From an uncultured Acidobacteriota bacterium (GTDB lineage Bacteria > Acidobacteriota > Terriglobia > UBA7540): DNA of 64,000 nt. The position numbers and the translations under genes are program-made. The stretch lies in NCBI GenBank assembly GCA_963804995.1, contig CAWDSK010000004.1, positions 150,505 through 214,504 on the forward strand. The letters are read 5' to 3'. The notes under the pieces are model-generated. The model was not told where the DNA came from and did not search any database. It saw only the letters and a list, made by a program, of their open reading frames with translations. Shown here in pieces: positions 6,660-63,137 of this stretch. Position 1 is the first letter of the stretch; each line of letters begins with the position of its first letter.

Positions 6660-6722
6660 TGTCACGTTACATACCATGTGTGGCATTCAAGTTGCTCATC
6701 TCCCAGTCGGAGGGAAACCCAC

Positions 6723-31249: not shown

Positions 31250-31510
31250 CGGCACCTCCCGAAAGCGGGGATCGAACGAGGCGGGGCCATTCTACCACGG
31301 GAAACATACCGGGCGCGCTGACACGAGGTGTAGGTGCGCGAAGGGTACACCTTAGGTGTTGCGCAGGTCCGTTGGGATCGGCTAAGTGACCCCCTCACCC
31401 GGCCCGCCCCGGCTGATGAAAACGCAGGCTTCGGTCCACCCTCTCCCCCAAGGGGGCGAGCCCCGTATCCTATCTCTTAAGGAAACGCCTCGGTAGAGCG
31501 AGAGATCCGC

Positions 31511-42904: not shown

Positions 42905-43243
42905 ATGCGATATGAATGGGATGAGCGCAAGAACCGCCAAAACCGTCGCAAGCATGATGTTGGCTTCGAAACTGCGGTACTAGTTTTCGACGACCCCTAT
43001 GCGATTACGCAACGCGACTGGGCGTGTGAAGATGAGGAACGGTGGATCACGGTTGGAGCCATAGGGCCGGGTTCGATTCTACTGGTCGTCCACACCTTCT
43101 ATGAGGAACATGACGAGGAAATCATTCGCCTCATCTCAGCTCGCGCCGCCGAGTCGCACGAAAGGAGCGCCTATGAAAAGGCTCACCAAGGAGCAGGAAC
43201 GAGACATCCGCGCCATCGCGGCAAAGCGCGACGAAGACATTGA
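42905..43243 (+). CDS. brnT: BrnT family toxin
   Basis: MRYEWDERKNRQNRRKH.V.FE.A..VFDDP...IRLISARAA. Confidence 0.92.
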   Translation: MRYEWDERKNRQNRRKHDVGFETAVLVFDDPYAITQRDWACEDEERWITVGAIGPGSILLVVHTFYEEHDEEIIRLISARAAESHERSAYEKAHQGAGTRHPRHRGKARRRH

Positions 43244-43496
43244 TTTTTCAGATGCCCCACCGGTTCTCGATTGGAGTGGAGCAGAAATCGGTAAGTTTTA
43301 TCGGCCCCGGAAGCAGCCCGTCACCATGCGCCTGGATTCGGATGTCATTGCCTGGCTCAAAGCCGATGGGCCCGGCTACCAGACCAAGGCGAATGGGCTC
43401 CTGCGACACGCCATGCTGCATTTCAGAAGTGTTTCCCGCCACGAGGTAAACAGCGCAGGTGCGGGCAAGGCCAAACGGCAGAAAAGGCTCGGGTAG
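43173..43496 (+). CDS. brnA: BrnA antitoxin
   Basis: KQPVTMRLDSDVIAWLKA.GPGYQTKAN..LR. Confidence 0.92.
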   Translation: MKRLTKEQERDIRAIAAKRDEDIDFSDAPPVLDWSGAEIGKFYRPRKQPVTMRLDSDVIAWLKADGPGYQTKANGLLRHAMLHFRSVSRHEVNSAGAGKAKRQKRLG

Positions 43497-46412: not shown

Positions 46413-48100
46413 TCAATGCAACAAGCCGTACACATCCACTTGGCCACCCGCCCCAACGTATACCTTCCCATTCGCGATTGTCGGGGACACGAACTTCACC
46501 GCCGGGCCAGCCACGTCCCGCGAATTGGGTGCTTGGCTGCTATTGTAAAGTTCGTTTGCCACGTTGGTGGCATCGAAGGCGTGGAGAATGGCAGGGCCGC
46601 CATAGGTATTTGCGTCAGTTTGTACTGTCCACACGATAGCGTTGCTAGTTCCATTCGCGGAGACCACCGGTGGATCGCCCGGATCTACAACGGAGGATGC
46701 AGAGACTGTCGGATTCTGGGCAACGCCCTTTTGCAGAGGGAATTGCTTCAGGAAGTCGGAACCCGACTGGAAGTAGATGTTGCCGTTCCAGTAGGCCCCG
46801 CCGCCCATAAGCTCGCTCCCAAAGCCCTGAATCAATTGCACCGCCCCGGCGTCGTTCGTTTGCAGGTGGCCCAGATTGTCGCGGTTCAAAATCCAGAGCC
46901 GAGCATCCTTACCCCCCGTGACCAGCAGGTGAGGATAGGTGCCGGGCTGGTCAGGTAGCAGCAAGGCGGGACTTGAGCCAAGGTTGAGATCATAGGCGTC
47001 CAGCAGTTCCTGATTGGCAGGAGTGAAGTAATCCACGACCTGTAGCTGGCCAGACTGAAGTTGGAGCTTGAGGACGCTGTCGCTGTAATCCCTCCCCCCC
47101 GTATTGACGTCGAACGTGCCATTGGCGGTAACCACGTATATGTTTCCAGCCGCGTCAGCGCTAATGCCCCCGCCCGCCCCCCAGATTCCGCCCTTTTCAC
47201 CGTCCGGCGTGACATTGAAAACGGCAACCTGGTGGAGGTCTGCAGCGCTGTAGGCCAACAGCCAGCCATGGTAGTAGTCTATGTCACTGTGAGAAGCGAA
47301 TCCGAAATAGACAACGCCGTTCAGCAAAAGCAAGCCGGGGCGCTGCAGTTGTCGGAAGGCTCCAAAGGTTATGGTGCCACCGACATTATCGTATCCCTGC
47401 CCGGGTACACTTGCTGAAATTACCACCGGGCCGCCCAATTTCTCCGCTCCGGTCGTAATGTCAAGGGCGTGCAGGCGATAGATATAGTTGTAGGTGCATT
47501 TCGAAGTACAAGCGGGATCCACCGATTCCTTCGTCTTCGCCGTCACAAAGATCGCGCCGCCGATTGAGTCGATGACCGGAGTAGAGGTAATTCCGTACTC
47601 CGGTTTTATGTTATCGGACCCAACATCCTCATACGGCACTGTCGTGACCCCGGCAGAAGGATTTATGAAGCTGGTTTTCCAGAGGGGTGTCGTGGATGGA
47701 CCGTCGGCGTCAAAGGCATAGACGCTGTTGTGTTCTGTCGCTATGAAAACCACATTGTGTGCACCGCCGTTAATCGAGAACGTCCTGCATGTAGAGAGGC
47801 TGAGCGTAGACCTGCCCATCGACAGGCAACACGAACAGTTTTCCGAATTGGTTCTGATTTAGATTCGCAGGAGTCAGTACGGTCTCCAAGGCATTCAGGC
47901 CCGACCGCGAGTTGTCGTAACGTTGGGTAAGAATGCCCCCCGGCAGTGTCCCGACAACCACCTGCGCCTCAGCCGGAGTCGTCACGCCTCCCCCCCACTG
48001 CCGCAAGCCACGCCCAACACACAGGTTAGCAGGGCCGCACCTAATCGAGCCCTTGTCCCCCAAAGTCGGTGGCGACCCCTCCCTGGAGTCAGGGCATCCT
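46413..48100 (-). pseudogene. PQQ-like beta-propeller lipoprotein with apparent frameshifts (~47780 and poly-G ~47990)
   Basis: TQRYDNSRSG..PVDGQVYAQPLY continues in another frame as INGGAHNVVFIATEHNSVYAFDA; lipobox LGVAC in a different frame again. Confidence 0.75.
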
Positions 48101-48368
48101 TTAGGGGATGAGAAAAAGCTGAAAGCACAATTCTATAGTCCTGCAGCAGCATCAACATGAACGCAATTGTCCCCTTTGTGAATTAGTATTCTCTACCATT
48201 TTTAATACCAGAGAATATGTCCTTCGCACAAGTGTAAACATCAGAAGGCAATATGGGGTTAACATTGGCAGACTCAAACAGCTCTTTCGTGGTAATTTAA
48301 TTGGTGAAGTTGACCGCTAGAGCGTGGAAGAGTTCAAGCCTTGGCGGGCTGCTCTAAGTGAATAACAT

Positions 48369-48414
48369 CGGGGCGTGGCGCAGCCTGGTAGCGCGCTTGC
48401 CTTGGGCGCAAGAG
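48369..48414 (+). tRNA. 5' half of tRNA-Pro(TGG), truncated before the T-arm; left junction of an inserted element
   Basis: CGGGGCGTGGCGCAGCCTGGTAGCGCG-CTTGC-CTTGGGC-GCAAG-AG followed by unrelated sequence. Confidence 0.88.
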
Positions 48415-48931
48415 AATTAGGTGGAGCAAGTCTAATGCCAAACCAACTTTAGCTAAGTATATCAATAAGTTAGGAAATGTAGTAACGTCATTACCCCGTC
48501 AATAGGACTTACAAGGTCCCCACAAAACCCCCCACAGTCAGTCTTCTGTTAGAGCGCTTGCCTTCCCCAGCCATCCGCATCTGCTTCACAATGTTTCCTC
48601 CCTTTAAGCCATCAATTTCCGGCATCCCCGCAATCCAGAATGTGAGACTTCAGAACGCCCAGCAGCAAACCTCTGCGTTACGATTCGAGCCCCACGCGAG
48701 ACCCATCCCGCATTCAAAACCTGACCAAATCCTCCTTTCACTCCCAAATCCCAACCCTCCCTGGCAGGAGGAGGGCGAAGTGTGTTTCGCGCGAGGGCTG
48801 GAAGCGTCAATAACTGTGTTCACCAGGAGGAGAGGGTAGGGTCCCCTTTTCCTCAATCGTTTCGAGCCCAGGGGGGGTCTCCTTGAAACATCGTTGTTGA
48901 GAGATCCCGCTGGGTCTGTCCTGGAGGACAC

Positions 48932-49132
48932 ATGGATACAAATCGCATTTTCACAAACCTGTTTGGCGGATGGCTCACGGCAGCCGACAAGGCTGCGGCC
49001 GCCACAATCAATTACACCAAGTCAACCGTCGTGCCTTGCGTCTGCGACCTGACGCAGAAAGCGACCCTGGCAACCGGGAAGACCTTGGTTAAAGTTGGCA
49101 CGAAGCTGACCGACTGCTGCACCACGAAGTAG
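48932..49132 (+). CDS. Small hypothetical protein (66 aa)
   Basis: GGAGG RBS, co-oriented with element genes. Confidence 0.6.
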   Translation: MDTNRIFTNLFGGWLTAADKAAAATINYTKSTVVPCVCDLTQKATLATGKTLVKVGTKLTDCCTTK

Positions 49133-49223
49133 GCGCTTTTCCACCCGCATTTAGATCTCAACTCGCCGTAGTTAAGACTCCCTTCAATTCATTCCATTTC
49201 CCTTATCACACCGGAGGTGTGCC

Positions 49224-49463
49224 TTGAGAACATATCAACCCGAACGTGCTTTGATCGCTCGTGAAACCCACAAAGAGAACCGTGACGAGCTGGCCAAGAT
49301 GCTTGCCCAGATCGCCATGGAAAGGGCAGCTCGACTGCCACCATCAATTCTCCCGGTTTCTCTCGAAGAGCAGATCCAAGAAAGCATCCACAGGACTCGT
49401 GAGGACGTCCATCGCGCCAAGGACGTTCAGTCCGCCCACATTCTGCGCTGGCTGCAAAGTTAA
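49224..49463 (+). CDS. Small helical hypothetical protein (79 aa)
   Basis: GGAGGT RBS before a TTG start. Confidence 0.55.
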   Translation: MRTYQPERALIARETHKENRDELAKMLAQIAMERAARLPPSILPVSLEEQIQESIHRTREDVHRAKDVQSAHILRWLQS

Positions 49464-49632
49464 TCCCCTGTAAGTCCGGAAAGCCCTGGAGCATTTCCAG
49501 GGAGCAAGGGGCCCCCGCCTTCGCCCCCGCATTCCGGAATCCCACCCTTACTCCTCTCGTCCGAGGGGAGATCCCAATCGTGAACACAAATCCAAGCCCG
49601 TCTGGGGCCCATACCAGACAACTGGAGGTAGT

Positions 49633-52600
49633 GTGAACTATCAACATTTGCACTTTCAGTTTCCCGCTAAGCCATTTCAGCGGTGGCATGTGATCGAGGA
49701 CAGAACCGCCCCTCGCGGTTTGCGCTTCCGCCATGCCCGCCAGCCCGGTGAGAAGCCCGACCCGAAGGTGAACTTCGGGGTCGAGGAGCTTTCGGCTCGC
49801 CTTGAGCACGCCGGGGTGGAATACATGCGCATCGCACTCGGTAACGATGCGTCGTCGTTTGACCGGGCGCATGTGCTTCTCACAGACGGGCTCAAGGAAG
49901 AGGGTCCCGGTGACGGGCATTGGTATCCCGTCATTCCCTGGGTCCGGGACGACGGCTTCTACGCCGTATGCCTGCGCGAACCGATGCTGTACCAGGACGC
50001 CTGCCGTCTCTTTGGGTTCGACATCCCGGCCGGGAAGCCCAGCGTCCCCAAGCGCATTAAGCGCGACGTGGCGCGGGGCAAGACGAGCCTGTTCGGTGAG
50101 TTGCTTGAAACCCGCGAGCTTAACGAGTGGGATCTTCTCCACACTGTGATGCTTGCCGATGGCAAGACTACATTTCAAGTCGCCACCTACAATCCCAGTA
50201 ATCGCTGGCCGGAGGCCTGGACTTCCGGAGCAGCGCTGGCCTCTCCGCGGGGCGGCGCCATCCTGACCGGGCATCCGGTCAAGATCGGTGACATGATCCA
50301 GATTACCGGCGCCATGCCCAACGGCCAGATCAAAGGGAACTGCCTGATCTGGGACATTGACCATGATCTTGTGGTCTGGGACGTCAAGCCGGAACTCCGT
50401 GCCTGGCAAGGACAGATTTATCTCAGCGTTCTCAATGAACTCCATGGTGGCCCGGCCAACCTGGACGTTCAAACCGCCTCCAATCTCGACCTGGCCAAGG
50501 TGCGGGATCACAAGCTGATCCAGTTCCTTTGCCAGCAATACGCCTGCGATGTATTCGACCTGATGCGGGACGACGATCGAGTCAAGGAGGAGATCGGCTT
50601 TTATAACCCCGCAGCATGGGTCGATGAAGACGGTAATCCGGTGATTAACGAGAATCGCTGGAAGCTCTGGCGGATGTACTCCGCGGGCTTGCCGGCGATG
50701 CAGTTCCGGACCTGCCGGGACGCCTTCTATCGCACCCAGATGGAGTCCCCCGAGAACAACGATCCTGATCGCTTCCGGATTCGCTTCCGGGAGCCACAGG
50801 ATCTCATGACGGTCCAGTCGAATGATCTGGCCGGAGCGGCCGTGCGAAGGTATCTCTTCCCCGAGCCGTTTGTCTTTGACAAGCGGGGCTACCCGTACTG
50901 GGACCGTTCAACGTTACCCGACGTCGACTCGGTCTATCTGGGCGGGTTTGACGGCGAGTTCATCTCGCTGAGGAACCCCAATGCCTCGCATAAGGAATCA
51001 GGCAAGCTACGGGGCTGCAAGCTACAGCACTTTGCCGCAATCGACCGGGGCGCCGTGATGTTCGTGCATCTCGGCTTCGCCGCAAGCCCGGAGGGCGATC
51101 CCGGTATGGCAAAGAGCTTCAACGGTGCTGACTTCGACGATTCCGTGCTGGCGCTGCTAGACCCGGAAATCGTCCAGCACTGGAACAACCTGCCCGCGTA
51201 TCCGTGGGTTGCGGCCACACCTACCGAAGTACAGGTGATCGACGACGGTGATGCTTTGTTCGACCGGCATCCCAAGGCCAGGCTGTACGACTGGAGGTTC
51301 GTCTCCTGCATGGTCCAGGACGCCAAGCGCGGTCAGACCGGGATTGGATACGTGGTCAACGCCATCACCTGGTTCAACCTCCTCTGGCTCCATCGGGAGA
51401 GCATCGTGGCGGAGCTGCGGGCGATGCAGCCGAGCCCCCAGGTCGCAGAAGCCATCCGCTGGATGGAGCAAGAGCTGCCCGAGAGCCGGATGCCCATGGT
51501 GGCCTCACGCCTGGAGGAGATCATCGACGCGCTCAAAATGAATGGAAAATCAATTGACTGGGCGAACGATGTGATTGCGGAGTTCCGCCAGTCCTGCCCC
51601 GTGGCTCCGAAGTTCTGGTGGCAGGGCGGCTACCAGAGCCAGGGGCGCATTCCCCGCGATCGAATCGCAAACGGTAATGAACCCATTCCGGTGACCACGG
51701 CCATGGACGTGGCCCGGGAGCAATGGATTGAAATGTTCCAAAAGGCACGCCGGTTTGCCGACAAGGAAAGCTGGAGAAACTGCTGGCAAGTGCCACCAGA
51801 GATCCGCAGCTTCCCAACTCGCCCCGAGGCAGCGGCTGCCGCAAGGGACTTCTGGATGTTCTATAACCGCACCCGGGAAGCCAAGAAGGCGGAGTTCCTC
51901 AAGGCCGGCAAGGACCATCGCGGGAAGAAAGTCACGACCGAGCAAGACGCCGGGATTGCCGCTTACCTGTACGCGGAAGAAGATGTCCACGACCGGATCA
52001 AGGCCAGCGGTATGTATCTGGATATCTACGCGGAACTGGTCAAGCTGGTCTTTGACCGGGGATTGACCCTGGAGCCACCACGCAATCCCGATGGCACGGT
52101 GAAACCGGTAGCGGATGGCATCCTGGGTGGGCCACACACCCTGGATGGGCTGCTGGATATCGCCAGAGCCGCTGGCGTGACTCGTCGCCATGTGCCCTTG
52201 ACCTGGGAGTCTGCCCGAGTCCGCGAGGACTATGGCGATCTAAACCTGGACATCGTCGTGGAAGACACGCTGGTACGGATAGCAGGGAGCAGTTCAACGT
52301 CTGCCAATTGGATCGGCATCGTGGACCTGCCCGATGGCCAGTATCGGATGGAGCATGGCCTGGTGGTCACAAAGGACACGATCGAGGCTCCGCCTCAAGA
52401 ACCGGCAGTGGCTCTCGTGGCCGTGAATGACTTCGAGCAACGGCTGAAGGATGAGAAGCTCCGGCAGCAAGACCGCCAGAGGATCGAGGCTGAACTCAAA
52501 GCCTTCCGGGCTCAGGTCGGTAATGGCGTGACCATCAAGCCGGTGACTTATCGCAATCCTCAGAGCCAGGCGGACGAGCCCGGCGCGGAAGTGTTCCTGG

Positions 52601-53133
52601 AAGGGACTTCCGAGCCACTTGCCTGGATCTCGCGCGAGCACGTGCCCGTCGTTACAAGTGAACTCTCGGGGGTACTGGTCTCGGGAGGCCCGTACACGCT
52701 CAAGGTCCTCTGCCCGCTTGGAGCGGACAACCAGGGCGTTCGTCCTTCCCGACCTCTGGGTGTAAAGAACGTCCCGATCCAGATCGAGGATGACCCGATA
52801 CCCGAGGTGGATTATTTCCCAACACGGAAGAGCCAAGGGCCGTCCCTGGAGGTTGTCAATGGCTGGCAGTCCAGGATCAACCAGAGGAAAGCTACGCCAG
52901 GCGATCTCCAATGGTGGAAGAGCAAGGCTGGCAGCCGAGCGATTATACGACCAACCACTTTTGTAAGGGCTGGTGTGGCTGAGCCCGCAGTGGCTGTGTA
53001 TCTGGATGGCGATGGAGTCCAGTTTGGCTGGATAGCGAGAGAGCATATACCCGCCGTTAAGCGGGAAATGCACGGCTATCTTGCCGGTAGTGGACCGTAC
53101 ACATTGGCGTTTATCTGTGACCAACCCAAGTAA
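49633..53133 (+). CDS. Putative single-subunit two-barrel RNA polymerase (YonO / cellular RdRP-like) with two C-terminal HIRAN-like repeats
   Basis: Ordered motifs SGAALAS, IQITG..QIKGNCL, DVK, LRNP, FNGADFDD, GIGYVVN, IIDALKMNG; GGAGG RBS. Confidence 0.75.
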   Translation: MNYQHLHFQFPAKPFQRWHVIEDRTAPRGLRFRHARQPGEKPDPKVNFGVEELSARLEHAGVEYMRIALGNDASSFDRAHVLLTDGLKEEGPGDGHWYPVIPWVRDDGFYAVCLREPMLYQDACRLFGFDIPAGKPSVPKRIKRDVARGKTSLFGELLETRELNEWDLLHTVMLADGKTTFQVATYNPSNRWPEAWTSGAALASPRGGAILTGHPVKIGDMIQITGAMPNGQIKGNCLIWDIDHDLVVWDVKPELRAWQGQIYLSVLNELHGGPANLDVQTASNLDLAKVRDHKLIQFLCQQYACDVFDLMRDDDRVKEEIGFYNPAAWVDEDGNPVINENRWKLWRMYSAGLPAMQFRTCRDAFYRTQMESPENNDPDRFRIRFREPQDLMTVQSNDLAGAAVRRYLFPEPFVFDKRGYPYWDRSTLPDVDSVYLGGFDGEFISLRNPNASHKESGKLRGCKLQHFAAIDRGAVMFVHLGFAASPEGDPGMAKSFNGADFDDSVLALLDPEIVQHWNNLPAYPWVAATPTEVQVIDDGDALFDRHPKARLYDWRFVSCMVQDAKRGQTGIGYVVNAITWFNLLWLHRESIVAELRAMQPSPQVAEAIRWMEQELPESRMPMVASRLEEIIDALKMNGKSIDWANDVIAEFRQSCPVAPKFWWQGGYQSQGRIPRDRIANGNEPIPVTTAMDVAREQWIEMFQKARRFADKESWRNCWQVPPEIRSFPTRPEAAAAARDFWMFYNRTREAKKAEFLKAGKDHRGKKVTTEQDAGIAAYLYAEEDVHDRIKASGMYLDIYAELVKLVFDRGLTLEPPRNPDGTVKPVADGILGGPHTLDGLLDIARAAGVTRRHVPLTWESARVREDYGDLNLDIVVEDTLVRIAGSSSTSANWIGIVDLPDGQYRMEHGLVVTKDTIEAPPQEPAVALVAVNDFEQRLKDEKLRQQDRQRIEAELKAFRAQVGNGVTIKPVTYRNPQSQADEPGAEVFLEGTSEPLAWISREHVPVVTSELSGVLVSGGPYTLKVLCPLGADNQGVRPSRPLGVKNVPIQIEDDPIPEVDYFPTRKSQGPSLEVVNGWQSRINQRKATPGDLQWWKSKAGSRAIIRPTTFVRAGVAEPAVAVYLDGDGVQFGWIAREHIPAVKREMHGYLAGSGPYTLAFICDQPK

Positions 53134-53791
53134 GGCGCCTACCGTTGACATAAACCATCATCAAAACATGCGCTCGCGGATTCGAACTTTTCAGAGTCCG
53201 GGAGCCGGGAGGAAGTATGCAGAACTACATCACGTCGTTCTCTGCATCGGAGTCGTCCCAATTCGTGAATGACCAAGTCGGTTGGGACGAAGGTAGCCCT
53301 CACCGCCATGATTGTCACGATCCACCACATGAGGCTCGCGGGGGATTTGTCGATGACCGCTCTCCACCGCGAAGATTGCATGCGGTGGCAAGGTCAGACC
53401 CCTGGAAAGTTACAAGGGCTCAGGGTGGATTCCCGGGGGACGCAACTCGGAGGCGAAGATTATTCTGGGTTGCACGGCCAGACCGCTGGCTCACGGGGAG
53501 GGGGCAGAGATTGCCCGCTGAGGGATCGTCGTGGCGAAGATTGCTATCCCGGAGGGGAATTTGATGCCCTCTCGGCGTTGCCCGCGGCGAAGATTGAGCT
53601 CGATTGTTTCGCGTTTGCTTTTATGCCCAAGGGCTGTTTTGGGAGCTGTAGGGCCTCGTACGCGGGCCTGATTGAACTCATGGGAACCGCTACGGTTCAA
53701 CGACGTATTTAGGCAAGTCGAAGGGTCAGCAATCGTCTGTGTCAAATCTCAACTCTTGCTTCCGGGCAAAGACCCGGGAAAGGATGTGCGT

Positions 53792-54202
53792 ATGCCAAAG
53801 ACCGTCGCAGTCGTTCAACTTCCTGAGATTCTGAGAAACAAATCAAGCCATCTAGTGAAGCTTGCGGGAAAGGTCGATTCCTTCTCCCTTTTACTCCGCG
53901 AGACGCCGGACGGCGAGTTGAAACGCTCGATCGAAGAGCAGTTCCACGCCATGGTGTTCGCAACCCGCAAGGAGACTCGGAAGTATTGCCCTCGCTATCG
54001 CTCTCTGCCGGGAGAAGGCATCTTAGATTTCAATACCGATTGCAACTCCGGCCAACTTGAGCCGGGTGATATTGGCTATGCCCCACCACCCAAGCGGGGC
54101 AGGCTCTGCGAGACGTGCTGCTTCTTTACAGGCATTCCCGAGGAGCAAGTTCCTGAAATGACTTTAACCCCCGCGCCGCAAGACCTCGTGCTTGTGGTCT
54201 AA
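53792..54202 (+). CDS. Hypothetical protein with a Cys cluster
   Basis: AAGGA RBS; YCPRY..DCNS..LCETCC. Confidence 0.6.
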   Translation: MPKTVAVVQLPEILRNKSSHLVKLAGKVDSFSLLLRETPDGELKRSIEEQFHAMVFATRKETRKYCPRYRSLPGEGILDFNTDCNSGQLEPGDIGYAPPPKRGRLCETCCFFTGIPEEQVPEMTLTPAPQDLVLVV

Positions 54203-54293
54203 ATCTCGCCAGCCCTACCCCTTCATCCACTCACAGTTTTTCCCCATAACGCTCATAGCCGGTCGCAAAGCGACCACAGAAGGAGATCCGTTT

Positions 54294-54734
54294 ATGAACG
54301 AACCGAACTCTGAAGGTACGAGCATCCTTGGCCGTTCATGGCCGGGAGCCAACGTCTACAAATCCCTCAAGCTCGGCTGGCACTGGCGCCGGCTGAGGTG
54401 GGCCGTTGTGGCCGCCTCCGAAGCTGCGCAGGGCCACGAAGCCAATGGCCTGCCGCCCGGTTCGAGGGAATTCAGAACACTCTTTAATGAGGTCGCCAGC
54501 AAGGTTCAGGAGTATTCCACCGAGTCCGGTGATCCTCTCGACACTCTCAAGGCCCGGCTGCCTGCGCTGTGCGCGCTGGAGCGGCTGGCCAATCCTGTTC
54601 CCAGTGTGCCTCAGAACAAGGCTGGGCTGACGCTCGGCATCCTCATCGCCGCAGTCCTGGGACCAATCGTGTTCGGGGCGCTGATTGGTCTTGGGACCGG
54701 CATGGCCCATTGGATTGCGCACCTGTTCGGATAA
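54294..54734 (+). CDS. Hypothetical protein with a C-terminal Gly-rich TM segment
   Basis: AAGGAG RBS; LTLGILIAAVLGPIVFGALIGLGTGMAHWIAHLFG. Confidence 0.7.
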   Translation: MNEPNSEGTSILGRSWPGANVYKSLKLGWHWRRLRWAVVAASEAAQGHEANGLPPGSREFRTLFNEVASKVQEYSTESGDPLDTLKARLPALCALERLANPVPSVPQNKAGLTLGILIAAVLGPIVFGALIGLGTGMAHWIAHLFG

Positions 54735-54745
54735 GGAGGTCTGGC

Positions 54746-55108
54746 ATGACCGGGATACTGGAACTGTTCGTTCTTCTCGAACTGGGCAGCGGGATCGGCT
54801 TCCTGGTCAGGTGGCGTAACCGGCTCCTGGCCAGCAAGGTCAACTATTTCCACCCGCCGCACAACCGTAAGTCTCCCATCGACAAACTGTTCCGGTCCCA
54901 GACCGGCCCTGTGATCACCCGGCAGGACCAACTCTGCGTAAAGGTAGCCGATGGTATTACCGCCCTCGTTCGCAGGCTGGTCATGCTCGATGCCTTCCGC
55001 CAGCTCATGCGGGCCTTGGCTTTGCCCAGTTCACCGCTGCGTCGGATGCTTGGATCACATAAGATTTCCGCCCAGGGTGTGGCTTTACCCAAAGGGAGGC
55101 AACTATGA
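54746..55108 (+). CDS. Hypothetical protein with an N-terminal membrane anchor
   Basis: AAGGAGGT RBS; hydrophobic N-terminus. Confidence 0.6.
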   Translation: MTGILELFVLLELGSGIGFLVRWRNRLLASKVNYFHPPHNRKSPIDKLFRSQTGPVITRQDQLCVKVADGITALVRRLVMLDAFRQLMRALALPSSPLRRMLGSHKISAQGVALPKGRQL

Positions 55109-55326
55109 ACAGACCTACAGTACCCAACAGCGTTTGGATTACCGCTCTGGTCTTATGGCTGTTACCTGGCGGTATGTTTCTCTCGCTGGCGTACCTGTTT
55201 TACCACGAAATCAAGTTCGACAAGCAAGCATCCGCCTGGTCAAAGGCGAACTTTGCAGAGTACTGCGAACGTAAGCGGAGACAGGAGGAGGCAAAGCATG
55301 ACATTCACCCCATCCGCAACGAGTAG
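55105..55326 (+). CDS. Small membrane protein
   Basis: GGAGG RBS, ATGA overlap, hydrophobic stretch. Confidence 0.65.
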   Translation: MNRPTVPNSVWITALVLWLLPGGMFLSLAYLFYHEIKFDKQASAWSKANFAEYCERKRRQEEAKHDIHPIRNE

Positions 55327-55621
55327 CTTCTCGGCTGGTGCGGTCTTCTGGGGAATGGTTTGGGCCACGCTGGGCAAGCTCAATGAGCTGGTCCATTTCG
55401 TGGGCTTCAAGAAGTCCAATCCTCGCCAGACCGTACTGCGCTGGATAAACGCCCACAAGGTCGTCACCATCACCCTGACAGAAGCGGTCAACTATTCCGT
55501 GCATGGAATTTCGTCTCCGCTGGGCGTTACCTTCGCACTGGGCGGAACCCTGGTGAACATCTTCATGGTCACATTCATCGTGCCCATCTGGTGCCGGCTG
55601 TCGAACCTGGAACGTCGCTGA
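55298..55621 (+). CDS. Small membrane protein
   Basis: AGGAGG RBS; multiple hydrophobic segments. Confidence 0.7.
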   Translation: MTFTPSATSSFSAGAVFWGMVWATLGKLNELVHFVGFKKSNPRQTVLRWINAHKVVTITLTEAVNYSVHGISSPLGVTFALGGTLVNIFMVTFIVPIWCRLSNLERR

Positions 55622-55683
55622 TCGTCCCCCATCTCAGTCCCCGATAAGAATCCATCTCTCAATCACAAGGAGGCAATCGAATC

Positions 55684-55890
55684 ATGAAGACTCTCGTCAT
55701 CACTATCTCTGTTGTTTGTGCCGTGGTCGCATATTACTTCGGTTTTCGCTACTTCACGCGCCGGGATCTTGGCTTCACACCCGCTAGGAAGTACGTCAGG
55801 AACCTCGCGCAGAACCTGCTTCATACCGAAATCACCGCTGCCGGCGAAGCTGGCGCGACTTCCGAAACGACAACCGAACAAGCGGCCTAG
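55684..55890 (+). CDS. Small membrane-anchored protein
   Basis: AAGGAGG RBS; MKTLVITISVVCAVVAYYFGF. Confidence 0.7.
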   Translation: MKTLVITISVVCAVVAYYFGFRYFTRRDLGFTPARKYVRNLAQNLLHTEITAAGEAGATSETTTEQAA

Positions 55891-55949
55891 CAGACTGTCT
55901 TGCTGATTCTGGTCGGCGCAACTCTCACAGTTGGCAAAGGAGAGACGGC

Positions 55950-56345
55950 ATGTCACTCGTAACTCGTTACCGGCTCTTCTGGGCTGCCTTAATGGCAGCC
56001 CTTTTGGGTCTGGCGTTCTGGAAGAACTCCCGGAGCTATCCCCAGAAGTCACCGCCCTGGCGACTCGGCAAGGCCCTCATCGACACCGGGCTGGTGGTGC
56101 TCATGGTTATCTACACTCCGGCCCTGCTGCTTATGTACGTGGTGATCTGGCTGACCAGCCCGTTCCGGAACAAGATCATCCAGGTCACAACGGCATTCGC
56201 TTCCATATTGGCCATCACTCATCTGGCTGGAGTGGTTTTCGAAGCTGTCGCCGTGCTGGGTGTGTTCGCCGTGGACCTTCTGACCGGGCAGGTACTGGCC
56301 CGGATGGACAGGCGCGAAAGAAACAGGCGGGCGAAGGCTTCGTAA
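55950..56345 (+). CDS. Multi-pass small membrane protein
   Basis: AAGGAG RBS; 3-4 predicted TM stretches. Confidence 0.7.
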   Translation: MSLVTRYRLFWAALMAALLGLAFWKNSRSYPQKSPPWRLGKALIDTGLVVLMVIYTPALLLMYVVIWLTSPFRNKIIQVTTAFASILAITHLAGVVFEAVAVLGVFAVDLLTGQVLARMDRRERNRRAKAS

Positions 56346-56404
56346 GGAGCTGATGAGTAACGCTGCCCATGGCGGGCACTTCACGCGAGAGCCAGAGACT
56401 GAGG

Positions 56405-57112
56405 TCAGTTGTCGTAGTAGGATTTTCCGTCCATCTGCTGTACTGTCCTTCTGATTACCTCGGACATGTCCCAAGTTTTGATACGAGGGGTTGGTTGGGG
56501 GGCGATCGTCCCTCCGAAACCAGAACAGAGCTTGTCCGCTACCCACGTTCCCATTTGAAATTGGTCCGCAATTCGGCTTCTATTGGCCTTCACGACTGGT
56601 TGAATACGTCGGATTCTCAGGTCCGTGAGGCACTTTGCTCCGAGCTGGGCGTCGAAACGCCGCGCTTCCGAAACCAAGGTCTGACGGAGCAATTTCTCCC
56701 AAGCCGTAGCGTGCTCGCCCCTAAGGCTCTTTGGGTCAAAGTAAACATCAAGAGTGCCAACGCTCTGGTGATTGCGGATAAATTCCCGAAGAAGGGAGCC
56801 GACTACAAAGGCTGTGCATATTGACCAGATGTTGTCTGCTCTCGCCATGCCCGGGACATCGTCCGTTCCATCGATTTCGCCACTCCGGAACAAAGACTTC
56901 GCCAAAGACGCCTTTGCGACGAGCGCAAAAGCGTCGAGATCCTCAAGCATAAAGTTGATCCGTTCCAGGATCGGAGGCTTGAATAGATCACCAAGCCGAT
57001 CCACATTGCGATTTAGCCTTGCCTGCTCGACGGCCCAAGACGCGACGAGTATCACTCGCTGGCCAGTGAGTTCGCGATATGATTCGTCGAGGAATAGATA
57101 ATGCATGTGCAC
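56405..57112 (-). CDS. DUF3800-like (RNase H-fold) protein
   Basis: N-terminal YLFLDES, mid VYFD, C-terminal Q..WVADKLC. Confidence 0.55.
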   Translation of the reverse strand: MHMHYLFLDESYRELTGQRVILVASWAVEQARLNRNVDRLGDLFKPPILERINFMLEDLDAFALVAKASLAKSLFRSGEIDGTDDVPGMARADNIWSICTAFVVGSLLREFIRNHQSVGTLDVYFDPKSLRGEHATAWEKLLRQTLVSEARRFDAQLGAKCLTDLRIRRIQPVVKANRSRIADQFQMGTWVADKLCSGFGGTIAPQPTPRIKTWDMSEVIRRTVQQMDGKSYYDN

Positions 57113-57227
57113 GATCCCTTGAGTTCACCGTATAGCGAAAAGCGGCTTCAGGGGTCCGCGGTCCTCCTCTTGTGTCCTTCGGCGCGCAGAGACAGCCCGT
57201 GTTACCCAGCAGCTCGGCAATAACCCG

Positions 57228-57674
57228 CTACATCCGGTCCATCCGGGGTTTGCGGTTTCCCAAGGTTACCGAAACCGCGTGCTCGTAACCCAATTGCGAT
57301 TTGTAAGCACACAACTTACGCCGATCCCAGTCTTGGCCCTTCGTATTAGATTCCTTTTTCACCTCTACGACCAGAAGATTAGTTGAGGTTCCTCGCTTGT
57401 GCACGATTATGTCGGGATAAACACTTGCGGCATTGGTGTCGGTCGCATTCGTTTCAGGTAGGGTATTGTCGAGATCAAGGCGTTTCGTATCTTCAAGACC
57501 GTCCCTGTTGTACTCGCAGTCTACATCCCAATCTTGGAATTCAGCCTCCAGGTAACTGGCTAGCTTGTGCGTGATGGACCGCTCGTTCACATCGTGCGCA
57601 AGCAAGAAATGGTCTTTCTTGGCCAGGTTCTTGAGCGCCTCGCAAAGCTTATGCTGAACCGTGGAGCGTTCCAT
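57228..57674 (-). CDS. Putative PD-(D/E)xK nuclease-fold protein
   Basis: NERSITHKLA.YL, VDCEYNR, YPDIIVHKRG..NLLVVEVKK. Confidence 0.7.
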   Translation of the reverse strand: MERSTVQHKLCEALKNLAKKDHFLLAHDVNERSITHKLASYLEAEFQDWDVDCEYNRDGLEDTKRLDLDNTLPETNATDTNAASVYPDIIVHKRGTSTNLLVVEVKKESNTKGQDWDRRKLCAYKSQLGYEHAVSVTLGNRKPRMDRM

Positions 57675-57769
57675 AGGGCCTCTCTATGAAATCATACGCT
57701 CCGGCGAGTCCGCACGCTAATGCTTCGCCTTTCCCCGCAGGAAATCGCCGGCCCCCATCGAGGTCGAAG

Positions 57770-59374
57770 ATGAATCCTCTTACGAACCTTGCTCTCAGCG
57801 TGGGAGAGACTCTCGTTCACGAAGGTGGACGGCTGCTATTCGGAATTGCTCTTAGCAGGGCGAAGGTGCTTCTGGGTACGCCCCAGCCGCTCGGAATCCG
57901 GCAACTGGCCATGAATCGTGCCTTGCAGAAGAAAGCGGTGGATGGCGCTCTGCTGGCAGGTCCACGGACCGGGAGGGAATACGCCAAGTTCACATTGAAG
58001 AAAGGTCTGCCCACCGATCACCGGCCCAAGTTCTTGGCGGTCGAGAATGAGCCTCATTCCGTGGATGACTTCGACGGGGTCATCAAAGAAGGCTACGGAA
58101 AGGGCGAAAAGAGGCTTGTCTACTCCGGCACGGGCGTCATCAAGGTTGGGGGAAGCCGCCAGCTTGGGAAAATCAATGTTCACGAACACGAGGCTGAGAA
58201 GGCAGGCTTCCACTATGACTTCGTTGCCGAAGGCATCGACCCGCACACGCAGTCCTTCGAGGTCAATATCGCCAATGGACTCTTCAAGGGACGCTACGCC
58301 TTCCGGCAAGCCTTCGAGAATAATCGGCATCTGGTTGTCCGCATGAAGGACGAATCTGTCCTGGTGGCAAAGCCCGATATTCACGTCAAACCGCCAGAGT
58401 TCCTCAAAACCATCCGCCAGTCCGATCGCCCAGTCAGCGTCGAATGGAAAGATGATGGCAGTCTCGCGAATATGGCAGTCCACAATCTGCGTGCGGCTTA
58501 TCGTAGCCATCGCCTGGAAGGAGAGTGTTATTACGACAAGCTCCCGGCCATCGAAGACCTCCGCAATCGCTCTCCCTTGTGGCTGGCCCGCAGGCTCTTC
58601 CCAGGCCCGGAGCAGGAAGGAACCGTATTGCGAGGCGAGCTTCATCATCCCGACGGAGCCGCGCGAGTGGGTGGAATTTTGAATGCCCTGCCCGAGAAGT
58701 CCATCCGCATTCAGCAGGAGCGTGGTGCGGTTGAGTTCTACGCCTGGGACATTGCGAAGTTCAAGGGCAGGAACATCAGCCAGATGCCCTATGGGCAGCG
58801 CCGTGAACTCTATGAAGCCGTGATTGCAGAGATTCGTTTGTTCAATAGGCAGCTCCACGTCGTTCCGGCCATGCCCGAGGGCAGTGACCCTGTGGAGTTC
58901 TATCGCGCCATCATCCACGATCCCCGCGGCCTGCCGTGGAGCGAAGGCGTGATTGTGAAGTACCGGGATTCCGTGGACCAGTGGTTCAAGGTGAAGGCAA
59001 ACGATACCCTCGATGTAAAAGTCATACGTTGCATTGAAGGCGCGGGAAAGTTCGCGGGCAGCCTGGGGGCCATGGTTGTGGAAGGCCCGACCGGCGTAGA
59101 AAGCGAGATTGGTTCCTTCCAGTTGACCAATGAACAGAGACGATGGATTTGGCAGCATCGTGACCTACTGACGGGCCAGGTCGCCGAAATGCGGGCCTTG
59201 GCGGTCAATGAAAGCGGAGCAATACGGGCGGGAGTGTTTGTCCGGTTTCACCCGAGCAAATCAGAAGCTGGCCTGCTGATGTATGCCGAAAGCTTGGCTG
59301 GCAGCACAGATCCAAAGCAATCTCGTCCATTCCTTTACTCGCTGAAGAGTGCAGCGGGCTGGCGCAGAGGCTGA
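57770..59374 (+). CDS. ATP-dependent DNA ligase with an N-terminal LigD-phosphoesterase-like segment
   Basis: HEHEAEKAGFHYDF; EWKDDG, RGEL, FYAWDI, EGVIVK, WFKVK, OB-fold GKFAGSLGA. Confidence 0.8.
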   Translation: MNPLTNLALSVGETLVHEGGRLLFGIALSRAKVLLGTPQPLGIRQLAMNRALQKKAVDGALLAGPRTGREYAKFTLKKGLPTDHRPKFLAVENEPHSVDDFDGVIKEGYGKGEKRLVYSGTGVIKVGGSRQLGKINVHEHEAEKAGFHYDFVAEGIDPHTQSFEVNIANGLFKGRYAFRQAFENNRHLVVRMKDESVLVAKPDIHVKPPEFLKTIRQSDRPVSVEWKDDGSLANMAVHNLRAAYRSHRLEGECYYDKLPAIEDLRNRSPLWLARRLFPGPEQEGTVLRGELHHPDGAARVGGILNALPEKSIRIQQERGAVEFYAWDIAKFKGRNISQMPYGQRRELYEAVIAEIRLFNRQLHVVPAMPEGSDPVEFYRAIIHDPRGLPWSEGVIVKYRDSVDQWFKVKANDTLDVKVIRCIEGAGKFAGSLGAMVVEGPTGVESEIGSFQLTNEQRRWIWQHRDLLTGQVAEMRALAVNESGAIRAGVFVRFHPSKSEAGLLMYAESLAGSTDPKQSRPFLYSLKSAAGWRRG

Positions 59375-59481
59375 ACTCTCCGCCGATTTGCATTAATCCT
59401 CAAGCATTTCCCACCACAACCCTAAAACAAACACCAACAAGGGCGGGCGTGTCATGCCGCTCCAGATCGAGGGAAAACCCA

Positions 59482-60363: not shown

Positions 60364-60373
60364 TGAACTCCAA

Positions 60374-61618: not shown

Positions 61619-61722
61619 CCGAGCCTTTCCCGAACCTGCTTCATTTGGAGCAATTCCAGCAGGCGATGCCTTTGCAATCATGGGAAGAACCCACGGTCAG
61701 AATTGCTCTGCGTGGCGATCCA

Positions 61723-62717: not shown

Positions 62718-63137
62718 AAAACCCTCCTCACGGACAGAATTTCCGGCCCTCGTTCGATTCCACAGCAGGATGCGCCCAGACAGCACCTGGAGGAATCAAG
62801 GAGCTCCACACCAAAGGTCTCTCGGTCATAAATCCAATTCGACGGCCTGCTCAGGCTGCTCTCGCTTCCGATATCATAAGGTCTTCAAGGTCCTTCAGGT
62901 GATAATTCCCTGCCCAAACCTTCCAGGCTAGAATTATACGCCAGCGGGTCACGGTCAGCGCAGTCCTGACCGTGGGGTTTTCTCATGCCTGATACCCCAA
63001 CGGCATCCCCGCCGTGTAACGTAGTGAGCATTTAGTTCGTGACCACAGCCTAGCCGGTCCATGTGACAGAAAACCCTCATCGTTTCACCACCAACATGAA
63101 GCAGCGGTGCCGTCCACCTGACTTCAGGGAGGAGAGA

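Follow-up and report, generated by a model that had tools for sequence, protein, structure and literature searches.

The question raised by this locus is whether a mobile element of a peat-soil acidobacterium carries its own variant of the two-barrel RNA polymerase and, if so, what such an enzyme would do there. In the window, i.e. the whole stretch of 64,000 nucleotides that was analysed, an ORF with a GTG start encodes a protein of 1166 aa. A first-pass annotation had read this protein, from the order of its motifs, as a homologue of QDE-1- and YonO-type polymerases, and counting codons in the translation placed the ORF and all of the listed motifs where that annotation had put them. Of its span, the start (49633) was right and the end (52400) was arbitrary, the ORF continuing to 53133; its expectation that automated annotation would call the product hypothetical was borne out. 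The gene and the parts of its polymerase core are as follows.

49633..53133, + strand: single-chain two-barrel (QDE-1/RDR/YonO-type) polymerase homologue, 1166 aa (ORF, AlphaFold2 model, structure matches)
50224..50388, + strand: putative first-barrel (DPBB1-like) motifs S198-G199, Q223, T225, K234, D245 and K252 (alignment columns)
50224-50244, + strand: SGAALAS, residues 198-204
50296-50346, + strand: IQITG..QIKGNCL, residues 222-238
50386-50388, + strand: K252, in DVK (residues 250-252)
50971..50979, + strand: RNP, residues 447-449; R447-N-P449 is the second-barrel RxP motif ('Pro-gate') (conserved columns; RDR2 and YonO alignments)
51118-51141, + strand: FNGADFDD, residues 496-503
51130..51141, + strand: D500-F-D502-D503, predicted metal-binding loop, DxDD for DxDGD (conserved columns; gap in HMMER and hhalign)
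51340-51360, + strand: GIGYVVN, residues 570-576
51520-51546, + strand: IIDALKMNG, residues 630-638
51340..51546, + strand: helices bearing G572/N576 (GIGxVVN) and I631-D632 (IIDxxK), which may correspond to the bridge helix and trigger loop

In the AlphaFold2 model of the protein (pLDDT 87.5, pTM 0.77), the core that matches RNAi polymerases spans residues 9-849. Foldseek against the PDB returned 22 matches at E ≤ 0.001, with QDE-1 first (1.1e-13), then RDR2 and then gp62 of phage P74 (9e-4); just past this cut-off came gp64 of phage P32 (2.2e-3) and the RNA polymerase of the crAss-like phage phi14:2 (8.2e-3). VIA-align gave Z 19.1 for maize RDR2 (597 aligned, rmsd 8.9), 14.4 for QDE-1 (641 aligned, rmsd 5.0), 13.0 for P32 gp64 and 12.9 for P74 gp62 (model residues ~51-849), and beta' subunits reached Z ~7 on residues 372-699, e.g. 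model residues 382-520 against E. coli beta' 344-483. In BFVD, 16 phage proteins matched at E ≤ 0.001, A7XX94 of P23-45 among them. Comparison of the model with QDE-1, RDR2, P32 gp64 and beta' thus recovers a two-barrel core, and the best PDB matches are QDE-1, RDR2 and phage RNA polymerases, as the motif-order reading had implied. These structure matches and the conserved residues described below support a single-chain two-barrel nucleotide polymerase, predicted to belong to the superfamily of QDE-1/RDR, YonO, P23-45-type gp64 and the cellular beta/beta' barrels.

The relationship is much fainter in sequence. Searched as a single sequence, the protein met with nothing meaningful in Pfam, PHROGs or PDB sequences: there was no Pfam match at E ≤ 1 and none in PHROGs or NCBIfam. 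Among the 48 members of the family, 7 match Pfam RdRP (PF05183) at E ≤ 0.1, and three distant ones (40.8, 33.2 and 25.0 bits) exceed its gathering cut-off of 23.8 bits; the 1166-aa protein, itself without a PF05183 match, would thus belong to Pfam RdRP by transitivity alone. A family profile aligned the RxP..DxDD stretch with RDR2 weakly (E 0.075, not significant alone). By hhalign, the 48-row family profile matched YonO residues 436-554 across the RxP motif and the Asp loop only marginally (probability 51%, E 1.5e-4, 113 columns), an 8-row profile reached a probability of 0.3% against YonO, and the profile of an 8-member phage-like subgroup found only irrelevant weak matches among PDB sequences. 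No relative of the close family was found by a pattern search of IMG/VR, and tblastn gave no match with one family member as query in 50,697 GenBank phage records, nor with the 1166-aa protein in 72,556 PLSDB plasmids. The family is known from metagenomes only, in bacteria and phages.

Conservation was counted over 48 aligned relatives, several of which are just 18-26% identical. D500, D502, D503, G572, D632 and D828 are present in 48/48 rows, R447, P449, K234, K252 and G199 in all of the 47 rows that cover them, and N576 in 46/48. The RxP motif of the two-barrel superfamily (Rpb1 R446/P448; QDE-1 R962/P964) is therefore represented by R447 and P449, which are aligned to 'KNPC' of RDR2 by the HMMER profile and to 'RSPH' of YonO by hhalign. 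The first-pass annotation had noted that the loop lacks the Gly of DxDGD, and this proved to be real and family-wide: the loop is always DxDD and never DxDGD, a residue between the second and third Asp occurs in 0/48 rows, and both HMMER and hhalign place a single-position gap across from the Gly in RDR2 'GGDLDGD' and YonO 'DNDGD'. In two-barrel RNA polymerases the Mg2+-binding signature DxDxD is described as invariant (passages of PMC2919709 and PMC7824862); here the three Asp are kept at the spacing DxDD. A full-text literature search found no paper on a DxDD loop in two-barrel enzymes.

Against 8 close copies, dN/dS was 0.08-0.21, indicating purifying selection over the whole length of the gene, from which we conclude that the gene is functional. 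This makes a natural family under purifying selection with a putative metal loop one residue short of a signature called 'invariant' (in parts of PMC2919709 and PMC7824862), and in one clade the other barrel has, in addition, lost its accessory Asp. If active, such a family would reveal how far the oldest known polymerase active site can change.

The first-barrel residues were mapped onto QDE-1 D709, Q736, R738, K743 and K767 by order and spacing, and this correspondence is probable rather than certain. On the beta-type barrel two basic residues are expected (Rpb2 K979/K987; QDE-1 Q736/K743 plus K767), for which K234 and K252 are the candidates. Residue 198 probably occupies the QDE-1 D709 position, being 25 residues from the Gln as against 27 in QDE-1, so the 1166-aa protein would have Ser198 in place of the metal-B Asp (Rpb2 D837; QDE-1 D709). 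The earlier claim that D is replaced by S here holds for the acidobacterial clade, with Ser in 15/15, and fails for the family, since 26/31 distant relatives have D or E; the other five have A (3), S (1) or N (1). The companion claim, R replaced by T, is right in that Thr225 is present in 45/47 members. The residue compared, QDE-1 R738, is specific to RNAi-type enzymes (according to passages of PMC9508822), so Thr225 is not a lost universal residue.

The substitution at 198 and the shortened loop raise the prospect that the protein of the acidobacterial clade is catalytically crippled and kept for a non-catalytic role, e.g. nucleic-acid binding. The QDE-1 mutant D709A is much weaker, still not dead (as given in part of PMC9508822); moreover, 2/8 compared copies have internal stops, and fragments occur in several genomes. 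However, the three loop Asp, the RxP motif and both Lys are invariant, and selection acts on the whole length. The DxDD loop is also found in relatives that retain the first-barrel Asp, and five distant relatives are without that Asp too. On this balance we regard loss of catalysis as highly improbable.

Since the best structural matches are RdRPs (RDR2 and QDE-1) and Pfam RdRP is the sole family recognising any relative, an RNA-dependent RNA polymerase, which would turn element or host transcripts into dsRNA for regulation or counter-defence, has to be weighed as well. Residue 223 points in two directions: it is Gln in the acidobacterial clade, as at Q736 of QDE-1, and Arg or Lys in 21/32 distant members, which resembles the Lys of Pol II (residue assignments from parts of PMC9508822). 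The RNAi-specific Arg is Thr in nearly all members. To the best of our knowledge no bacterial dsRNA-processing partner lies beside the gene, and the bacterial and phage relatives that have been tested so far are all DNA-dependent. We therefore consider RNA templating very unlikely, though marginally less so than a dead enzyme.

Compared with QDE-1 (Neurospora/Thielavia) and plant RDR2 (PF05183), the present protein likewise has both double-psi barrels in a single chain and the same motif order, i.e. a D709-like position, a Q736-like Gln, two Lys, RxP and the Asp triad, at an identity of only ~10-13%. It differs in the DxDD for DxDGD, in the Thr for the RNAi-specific Arg, in the Ser for the D709-type Asp in the acidobacterial clade, in its HIRAN-like C-terminal modules, and in being encoded by bacterial mobile elements and phages instead of an RNAi pathway. 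By adding relatives from bacteria and phages, the family has a bearing on the origin of the eukaryotic RNAi polymerase.

Among phage enzymes, the non-virion RNA polymerases of Thermus phages, P32 gp64 (PDB 8F72) and P74 gp62 (PDB 8F5M), are likewise minimal, single-chain and two-barrel, but of ~590-600 aa against 1166 aa here and at 10-11% identity. Theirs is a loop of the canonical DxDxD form, and they recognise promoters in phage DNA; we know of no ligase linkage for them. YonO of the Bacillus prophage SPbeta is also a single-chain two-barrel enzyme of a prophage or mobile element, but has a DNDGD loop and 839 aa and, as far as we know, no C-terminal beta modules. The virion RNA polymerase gp66 of phi14:2 (PDB 6VR4; Z 7.7) and cellular beta' (Z ~7) have the second-barrel RxP/Asp-loop architecture in common with the present protein; they are much more distant, multi-domain or multi-subunit, and have a canonical NADFDGD-type loop. 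Of broadly the same sort are the RdRP-like polymerases of selfish elements (Iyer and Aravind, cited in PMC3417536; 'YonO-like proteins' in PMC2919709), here compared by description; they too are single-chain relatives of eukaryotic RdRPs from bacteria and phages, encoded on mobile elements. They occur in firmicutes, cyanobacteria and CFB bacteria with an invariant DxDxD and with REase/URI nuclease neighbours or RNase H fusions, and these passages of PMC3417536 and PMC2919709 mention no DxDD loop, Acidobacteriota, HIRAN-like modules or ligase linkage.

Beyond the core, the model of residues 848-1166 (pLDDT 85.6) contains two beta-rich modules that were assigned by structure matches.

52387..52755, + strand: beta-rich module 1, HIRAN-like, residues ~919-1041
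52831..53130, + strand: beta-rich module 2, HIRAN-like, a repeat of module 1, residues ~1067-1166

Module 1 matches the HLTF HIRAN domain modestly (6kcs_A, Z 6.4 with 92 aligned; 4xzg, Z 5.9-6.2), and module 2 matches 3k2y_A, which we take to be a HIRAN protein (Z 7.7, 87 aligned), and Rad5 residues 179-287 (Z 5.9). The next unrelated structures score Z ~4-5, against Z 5.9-7.7 for the HIRAN matches. Language-model neighbours of module 2 were HIRAN-named clusters at a score of 0.78, which is below the reliable level and serves as a lead only, and residues 850-1166 had no Pfam match at E ≤ 1, HIRAN PF08797 included. Module 2 is present in five relatives and missing from five others of ~1030 aa. 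The C-terminus may thus bear one or two HIRAN-like modules, a weak assignment. Foldseek ranked sliding clamps first for this C-terminal model; with TM ~0.1 and probability up to 0.2, we take these to be an artefact of the repeated beta modules.

HIRAN binds 3'-OH DNA ends, and the surroundings of the gene are also concerned with DNA. The remaining features of the element are as follows.

48690..49223, no strand: left end of the element, ~530 bp, largely non-coding, conserved at the DNA level (blastn against related loci)
49224..49463, + strand: ORF for a helical, charged product of 79 aa, immediately upstream of the polymerase gene (tblastn)
53269..56353, + strand: five small co-oriented ORFs separating polymerase from ligase (147, 176, 180, 122 and 140 aa)
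57686..59374, + strand: ATP-dependent DNA ligase whose N-terminal region weakly resembles a LigD-type 3'-phosphoesterase
59449-60363, + strand: FliA/WhiG-type sigma factor, found in 1/22 related loci
60374-61618, + strand: Gp3-like recombination directionality factor-like protein, in 5/22
63063-63944, + strand: AEP primase, in 2/22

The left end was placed by blastn against 22 related loci, in which similarity starts at 48690 in 9 and at 48691-48715 in another 4; in two it begins at 48513/48514 and in four at 48855, and the remaining ones are cut by contig ends or start later. An unconserved 93-aa ORF (48558-48839) overlaps this end, and genes upstream of 48558 had no match in any of the 22 loci. 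Rfam gave no match in 47800-57800, and in 48400-57800 0 sigma-70-like promoters were found against 3.1 expected. The polymerase is the first large gene from the left end, and the element reaches the contig end at 64000. The 79-aa ORF was matched by tblastn in 19/22 loci, each time just upstream of the polymerase, and each of the five small ORFs was found in 12-15 of the 22; the 180-aa and 122-aa products are hydrophobic with membrane-like segments, and neither the 79-aa ORF nor the five small ORFs had a Pfam or PHROGs match. In one related locus an IS (DDE_Tnp_1) lies between the 79-aa ORF and the polymerase. The ligase matches phrog_114 (E 1.5e-23) and, below Pfam cut-offs, DNA_ligase_OB_2 (E 2.3e-5) and LigD_N (E 4.2e-4), with NCBIfam PRK09632 at E 1.8e-10, far below cut-off. 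Most of the 22 loci end before the sigma factor, Gp3-like and primase genes, which limits their counts. The element in a sister genome is ~75 kb long; it encodes RNase H and, at the far end, a tyrosine integrase, and no att-like direct repeat was found between its two ends down to 12-mers.

A 215-kb jumbo phage (myovirus record, CheckV 100% complete) has the same co-linear block of polymerase, small membrane proteins and ATP-dependent DNA ligase; its polymerase is ~24% identical, and it has homologues of the 180-aa ORF (E 2.8e-10), the 122-aa ORF (E 3.7e-25) and the ligase (E 1.3e-157). This polymerase was the only two-barrel polymerase detected in the phage: its ORFs of at least 200 aa gave no match to the beta' domain PF00623, for which the same search was positive in 14/14 control genomes. 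A search for the T7-type RNA polymerase PF00940 gave no match in the phage and likewise none in the control, and is hence uninformative. The element itself is unlikely to be a prophage of this jumbo-phage type, because the two have no structural genes in common and a Pfam search of the sister element brought up neither capsid nor tail genes; the Gp3-like protein had no match in two phage records.

We consider it most probable, at about 0.6, that the enzyme is the element's own RNA polymerase and, by analogy with the characterised phage members, would make RNA from NTPs on element DNA, as YonO transcribes the late genes of SPbeta (reported in PMC5467207, in the part cited here). The fold, the conserved residues and the mobile context lend support to the first-pass annotation, which had inferred an element-encoded RNA polymerase, and the jumbo phage, with a family member as its sole detected two-barrel polymerase, supports the same reading. 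In such an enzyme D500, D502 and D503 on the second barrel would hold the catalytic metals, R447-N-P449 would probe the incoming NTP at its sugar and minor groove and so favour RNA over DNA synthesis, and K234 and K252 of the first barrel would grip the phosphates of product and NTP. The helices with G572/N576 and D632 (571-586 and 627-637 in the AlphaFold2 model) may act as bridge helix and trigger loop, and we infer their equivalence to the named QDE-1 elements. A DNA polymerase role like that of archaeal PolD is unlikely, because the RxP Arg is invariant and its QDE-1 counterpart R962 hydrogen-bonds 2'-OH groups (sections of PMC9508822).

Several observations count against a transcriptase. 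The canonical DxDxD spacing is broken, the clade has Ser198 where the equivalent QDE-1 change, D709A, is much weaker (same passages of PMC9508822), and no convincing repeated, promoter-like motif was found at 48500-64000. The neighbours, a ligase and an AEP primase here and an RNase H in the sister element, belong to DNA metabolism; a dedicated transcriptase would be needed for late or structural genes, and these are neither. The fixed linkage to a DNA ligase and the possible 3'-end-binding modules suggest a task different from plain transcription.

Such a job could lie in DNA metabolism. The HIRAN-like modules would bind element DNA, single-stranded or nicked, at a 3' end; short RNA would be made there, either to prime on the strand or to extend the end, and ligase with RNase H or AEP primase would process and seal the product, for element replication or end repair. 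The order polymerase-small ORFs-ligase holds in 11/11 full-length copies whose downstream flank is 6.9 kb or longer and also in the jumbo phage, where the ligase is far better conserved than the polymerase, and the LigD-like region of the ligase and the HIRAN-like C-terminus fit this role. QDE-1 uses ssDNA templates (a passage of PMC9508822), and a function as primases has been suggested by Aravind and colleagues for the RdRP-like enzymes that selfish elements encode (PMC3417536, in the section cited). However, the jumbo phage, which also has its own DNA polymerase, clamp and clamp loader, already has a primase-helicase and the acidobacterial element an AEP primase, the HIRAN assignment is weak, and the synteny may reflect only a common early expression module. 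Characterised phage relatives, as far as the literature and structure titles state, are all transcriptases. This role is possible, and we hold it to be clearly less probable than transcription by the element's own RNA polymerase.

A bolder form, which we hold to be doubtful, is that the polymerase/small-ORF/ligase block is a self-contained system of phages and integrative elements for processing DNA ends or nicks. The HIRAN-like part would tether the polymerase at a 3' end, the DxDD site would add or template ribonucleotides, and the ligase, through its LigD-type phosphoesterase-like region, would trim and seal the RNA-DNA junction; the system would then perhaps do the work of bacterial LigD end joining, a two-barrel enzyme standing in for the AEP polymerase domain. 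If true, it could serve to copy or mend the DNA of the element once host nucleases have attacked it.

Whichever its role, the gene is patchily distributed. It is present in 8/28 other genomes of the genus and absent from the genomes searched beyond it (0/8 from other genera of the family, 0/24 further ones of the order or class, and 0/400 sampled across the phylum). Metatranscriptome contigs from 4 runs cover the polymerase gene and the region upstream, mostly at 90-95% likeness; the runs were selected with the polymerase gene itself and may contain DNA carry-over, so these contigs are a weak hint of transcription in relatives, and no meaning attaches to the gap in their coverage at 55.2-58.0 kb. 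One sister genome has 5 matches to the gene, and the element is multi-copy in some genomes.

The gene for the polymerase homologue, here termed P0001, occupies 49633..53133 on the + strand and is translated from a GTG start into 1166 aa, as given by ORF listing and translation. Position 49633 is the earliest available start codon in this open frame, and close homologues start at the matching residue, with M/V-NYQHLHFQF. The end coordinate of 52400 used in the first-pass annotation is arbitrary, as the ORF ends at 53133, but the feature is real, and all seven motifs from which a two-barrel RNA polymerase had been proposed were found in the translation where they had been placed.

Motifs in the P0001 translation (+ strand; window coordinates where available)
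Residues 198-204: SGAALAS
Residues 222-238 (50296-50346): IQITG..QIKGNCL
Residues 250-252: DVK
Residues 447-449 (from 50971): RNP
Residues 496-503 (51118-51141): FNGADFDD
Residues 570-576: GIGYVVN
Residues 630-638: IIDALKMNG

Searches of P0001 against Pfam gave nothing meaningful (the top match, Ribosomal_S16 at E 0.027, was below its cut-off), nor did PHROGs, NCBIfam or PDB sequences. As anticipated, automated annotation calls these proteins hypothetical: among 60 members read from six clusters, all 17 that carry a name are 'hypothetical protein'.

The AlphaFold2 model of P0001, with a 48-row family alignment as input, reached a mean pLDDT of 87.5 and a pTM of 0.77, and only residues 532-538 and 1031-1067 were of low confidence. 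Foldseek returned 22 PDB matches to this model at E <= 0.001, including QDE-1 (7y7t_B, E 1.1e-13; also 2j7n and 5fsw), maize and Arabidopsis RDR2 (E 5e-11 to 8e-7) and P74 gp62 (E 9e-4), with the P32 gp64 RNA polymerase (2.2e-3) and the crAss-like phi14:2 virion RNA polymerase (8.2e-3) lying slightly past the threshold. VIA-align, run on Foldseek's PDB matches, superposed RDR2 (7w82) on model residues 9-849 with Z 19.1 (597 aligned, rmsd 8.9) and QDE-1 with Z 14.4 (641 aligned, rmsd 5.0), followed by P32 gp64 (Z 13.0), P74 gp62 (Z 12.9) and 6vr4 (Z 7.7). Many beta'/Rpb1 chains aligned to residues 372-699 at Z ~7, and the E. coli beta' barrel bearing the Asp loop (344-483) corresponded to model residues 382-520. 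In BFVD, 16 phage proteins matched at E <= 0.001, including A7XX94 of P23-45, and part of them are auto-named 'RNA dependent RNA polymerase'. By structure comparison the two-barrel fold was therefore recovered in the model, and we regard homology of P0001 to two-barrel RNA polymerases as close to certain.

A word-indexed search for relatives of P0001 yielded 22 proteins (69-96% identity), and exhaustive phmmer against 1.84 billion representatives found 139 at E <= 0.001 (108 of these at <= 1e-10), among which ~30 are full-length, with 860-1090 aa and 23-38% identity. In a 33-row alignment K140, R144, G199, K234, K252, Q280, G419, R447, P449, D500, D502, D503, G572, D632 and D828 are invariant, and the last six remain so in 48 rows. 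The three loop aspartates are present in 48/48 rows, R447, P449, K234 and K252 in 47/47 covering rows, and the family consensus reads 'RQPNxH ... GGGDxDD'. This column conservation indicates that the motifs picked out by the first-pass annotation coincide with the core conserved across a genuine family, in which both the DxDD loop and the RNP arginine are retained. Moreover, the second and third loop Asp are directly adjacent in every row, so the Gly reported as missing from DxDGD is lost in the whole family.

Sequence comparison also connects the family to known enzymes. Pfam RdRP (PF05183) matches 7 of 48 members at E <= 0.1, and three distant members, P0052 (40.8 bits), P0092 (33.2 bits) and P0120 (25.0 bits), exceed its gathering cut-off of 23.8 bits, all on the second-barrel region. 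Among PDB sequences the family profile matches Arabidopsis RDR2 best, although not significantly (E 0.075), with 'hRqPN ... gGgDqD.D' opposite 'tKNPC ... sGGDLDgD'. Using hhalign, the profile aligned weakly with YonO (sequence from AF020713) at 51% probability and E 1.5e-4 over 113 columns, with RxP aligned and a gap opposite the Gly of YonO 'DNDGD'; a narrower 8-row profile does not detect YonO.

Residue roles were considered by comparison with QDE-1, as described in the consulted parts of PMC9508822.

Putative counterparts of P0001 residues in QDE-1, assigned by order and spacing, without coordinates or residue-level superposition
S198: D709, first barrel, reaching cation B via water; D709A is much weaker
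Q223: Q736, at the position of Pol II K979
T225: R738, specific to RNAi-type enzymes
K234: K743, binding product and NTP phosphates
K252: K767, binding product and NTP phosphates
R447-N-P449: R962-x-P964, the Pro-gate, contacting 2'-OH groups and the minor groove
D500/D502/D503: D1007/D1009/D1011, ligands of cations A and B

The replacement of the first-barrel Asp by Ser holds for the acidobacterial clade (15/15) but not for the family, since D/E occurs in 26/31 distant members and A, S or N in the other five. The proposed change of the first-barrel Arg to Thr is family-wide (Thr225 in 45/47), but on this mapping the Arg concerned would be the RNAi-specific residue. Residue 223 is Q in the acidobacterial clade and R/K, as in Pol II, in 21/32 distant members. 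E/D194 is conserved in the acidobacterial clade only and, speculatively, could compensate for the missing Asp. The invariant Arg of RxP would argue for NTP over dNTP as substrate.

Residues ~850-1166 of P0001 fall outside the QDE-1-like core. Folded separately, residues 848-1166 gave a pLDDT of 85.6 and a model of two alike beta-rich modules with a disordered linker between them, and the ~1030-aa relatives lack the second module. A VIA search of this model against all representatives placed 3k2y_A on top (Z 7.7), with Rad5 179-287 and HLTF HIRAN both at Z 5.9; in a further VIA comparison, HLTF HIRAN with DNA (6kcs) reached Z 6.4, with the following rows at <= ~4.4. Language-model neighbours of residues 1060-1166 were HIRAN-named clusters (score 0.78, rated as a lead only), and Pfam HIRAN has no match in P0001. 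With modest confidence, the predicted modules may be called HIRAN-like.

The window is the final 64 kb of its contig. Of the genes upstream of the element (a nitrilase and ORFs of no known function), none recurs at any of the 22 related loci, and DNA is common to these loci from ~48690 onward. The conserved order is a 79-aa ORF, the polymerase, five small ORFs, an ATP-dependent DNA ligase, a Gp3-like RDF-type protein and an AEP primase.

Parts of the element in the window
48690-49223: left end, ~530 bp, apparently non-coding, 75-89% DNA identity across loci
53269-56353: small ORFs between polymerase and ligase (also L027:16215-18042)
57686-59374: ATP-dependent ligase, with a weak LigD 3'-phosphoesterase-like N-terminal region
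59449-60363: FliA/WhiG-type sigma factor, scoring 188.4 bits, just under the cut-off of 189.6

Searches of the left end for Rfam families and sigma-70-like promoters gave no match; an att site, an origin or regulatory sequence could lie in it. The polymerase is present in 22/22 related loci, the 79-aa ORF in 19/22, four of the small ORFs in 12-15/22 each and the 107-aa one in 3/22, and the ligase lies downstream in all 11 full-length polymerase copies with at least 6.9 kb of downstream flank. The sigma factor, found in only 1/22 loci, is thus an accessory insertion outside the conserved cassette. The 180-aa and 122-aa small ORFs, which belong to no known family, have hydrophobic membrane-like segments and are kept even in a distant jumbo phage. 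In a sister genome an IS element with a DDE_Tnp_1 transposase (L001:8753-9856) separates the polymerase gene from the 79-aa ORF.

A fuller copy of the element, in sister genome G001, is ~75 kb long, with a tyrosine integrase at its end, and encodes RNase H, radical SAM, E2/ThiF, SMC-like and Hsp70/kinase proteins; Pfam detected no capsid, tail or type IV secretion genes in it. Its loci L024-L026 contain conflict-type sets: Prok-E2_D with ThiF, a DUF6094 methyltransferase with a helicase, an SMC-like ATPase and Metallophos pair, two radical SAM genes, and an Hsp70-kinase-FHA cluster. The 22 close loci are Acidobacteriota/Terriglobia metagenome bins, with one exception binned as Anaerolineales. 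The gene is single-copy in the source genome (one sister genome has 5 matches, fragments among them) and occurs in 8/28 other genomes of the genus, 0/8 of the family's other genera, 0/24 further genomes of the order or class and 0/400 sampled across the phylum. Against eight copies, dN/dS of the polymerase was 0.08-0.21, with internal stops in two of them. Taken together, these data match the picture of a mobile element that has spread recently while maintaining a working polymerase gene. Metatranscriptome contigs (4 runs, 3 studies) cover the polymerase gene and upstream region, mostly at 90-95% likeness, and are a weak hint that relatives are transcribed, because the runs were selected using the gene itself and DNA carry-over is possible.

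A phage-like subgroup of eight members is represented by three loci in IMG/VR, one of them in a 215-kb jumbo phage record (G002; CheckV 100% complete), which the family model matches once. A PHROGs scan of 100 of its 101 ORFs of at least 200 aa, the polymerase ORF itself left out, found terminase, portal, major head, sheath and baseplate genes, together with DNA polymerase, clamp, clamp loader, primase-helicase, UvsX-like recombinase and ribonucleotide reductase, and no RNA polymerase family; a beta'-domain search, positive in 14/14 control genomes, likewise had no match in G002. Downstream of the phage polymerase the order is kept, with the 180-aa ORF (E 2.8e-10), the 122-aa ORF (E 3.7e-25) and the ligase (E 1.3e-157). 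Compared with the whole G001 element, G002 has in common only the polymerase-ligase block, RNase H and two small ORFs, and no structural genes. Thus the polymerase-to-ligase block is an old, co-inherited cassette. Between acidobacterial element and phage, the ligase is far better conserved than the polymerase. The G002 polymerase retains the first-barrel Asp. In the structural block of G002 (L035:1613-17233), three giant ORFs of 1951, 1589 and 1641 aa follow one another, almost unannotated, one of them with an endolysin-like stretch.

The best-supported reading is that P0001 is an active, element-encoded RNA polymerase, to which we give a probability of roughly 0.6. Transcription is favoured because the characterised phage relatives are transcriptases, namely YonO (in the part of PMC5467207 consulted) and the Thermus phage enzymes (likewise, 10.1101/2022.12.01.518664), and because the jumbo phage encodes replication machinery of its own while no other RNA polymerase was detected in it. 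The fixed ligase linkage and the HIRAN-like modules would also suit work with the ligase in 3'-end processing, priming or repair, as would the activity of QDE-1 on ssDNA templates (PMC9508822, in part) and the primase role proposed in print for selfish-element enzymes of RdRP type (PMC3417536, in part). The dedicated primases of both element and phage count against this main rival, which we consider less likely than transcription. An RNA-dependent role, or a crippled enzyme, is possible but less likely still.

Relatives of eukaryotic RdRPs that bacterial and phage mobile elements carry are known from comparative genomics, and an invariant DxDxD signature is stated for them in the consulted parts of PMC2919709, PMC3417536 and PMC7824862. 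A full-text literature search found no paper pairing 'DxDD' with 'two-barrel', and further literature searches gave no description of the P0001 family, the ligase linkage or the HIRAN fusion; the 2003/2011 primary papers and supplements may list members of the family. Added here are the integrative-element clade in Acidobacteriota and the conserved polymerase-ligase cassette, together with the apparent loss of the first-barrel Asp, as judged from alignment, and, with modest confidence, the predicted HIRAN-like C-terminal modules.

Elsewhere in the window, two reverse transcriptases, one with a group II intron maturase domain, are encoded at 9986-11353 (-) and 39319-40755 (-); close to the RVT_1-only one are genes for a radical SAM protein (41312-42367) and a BrnA antitoxin (43101-43496). 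A 1407-aa ORF at 21062-25285 (-) has zero Pfam matches; next to it an ankyrin-repeat protein is encoded at 29492-31255 and a transglutaminase/DUF58 pair at 31511-34851. The start of the window holds DUF5131 and short tyrosine integrase genes (319-1134 and 6678-7304) alongside HTH and sigma-like ones, which suggests that another mobile region exists there, with no relation to the polymerase element.
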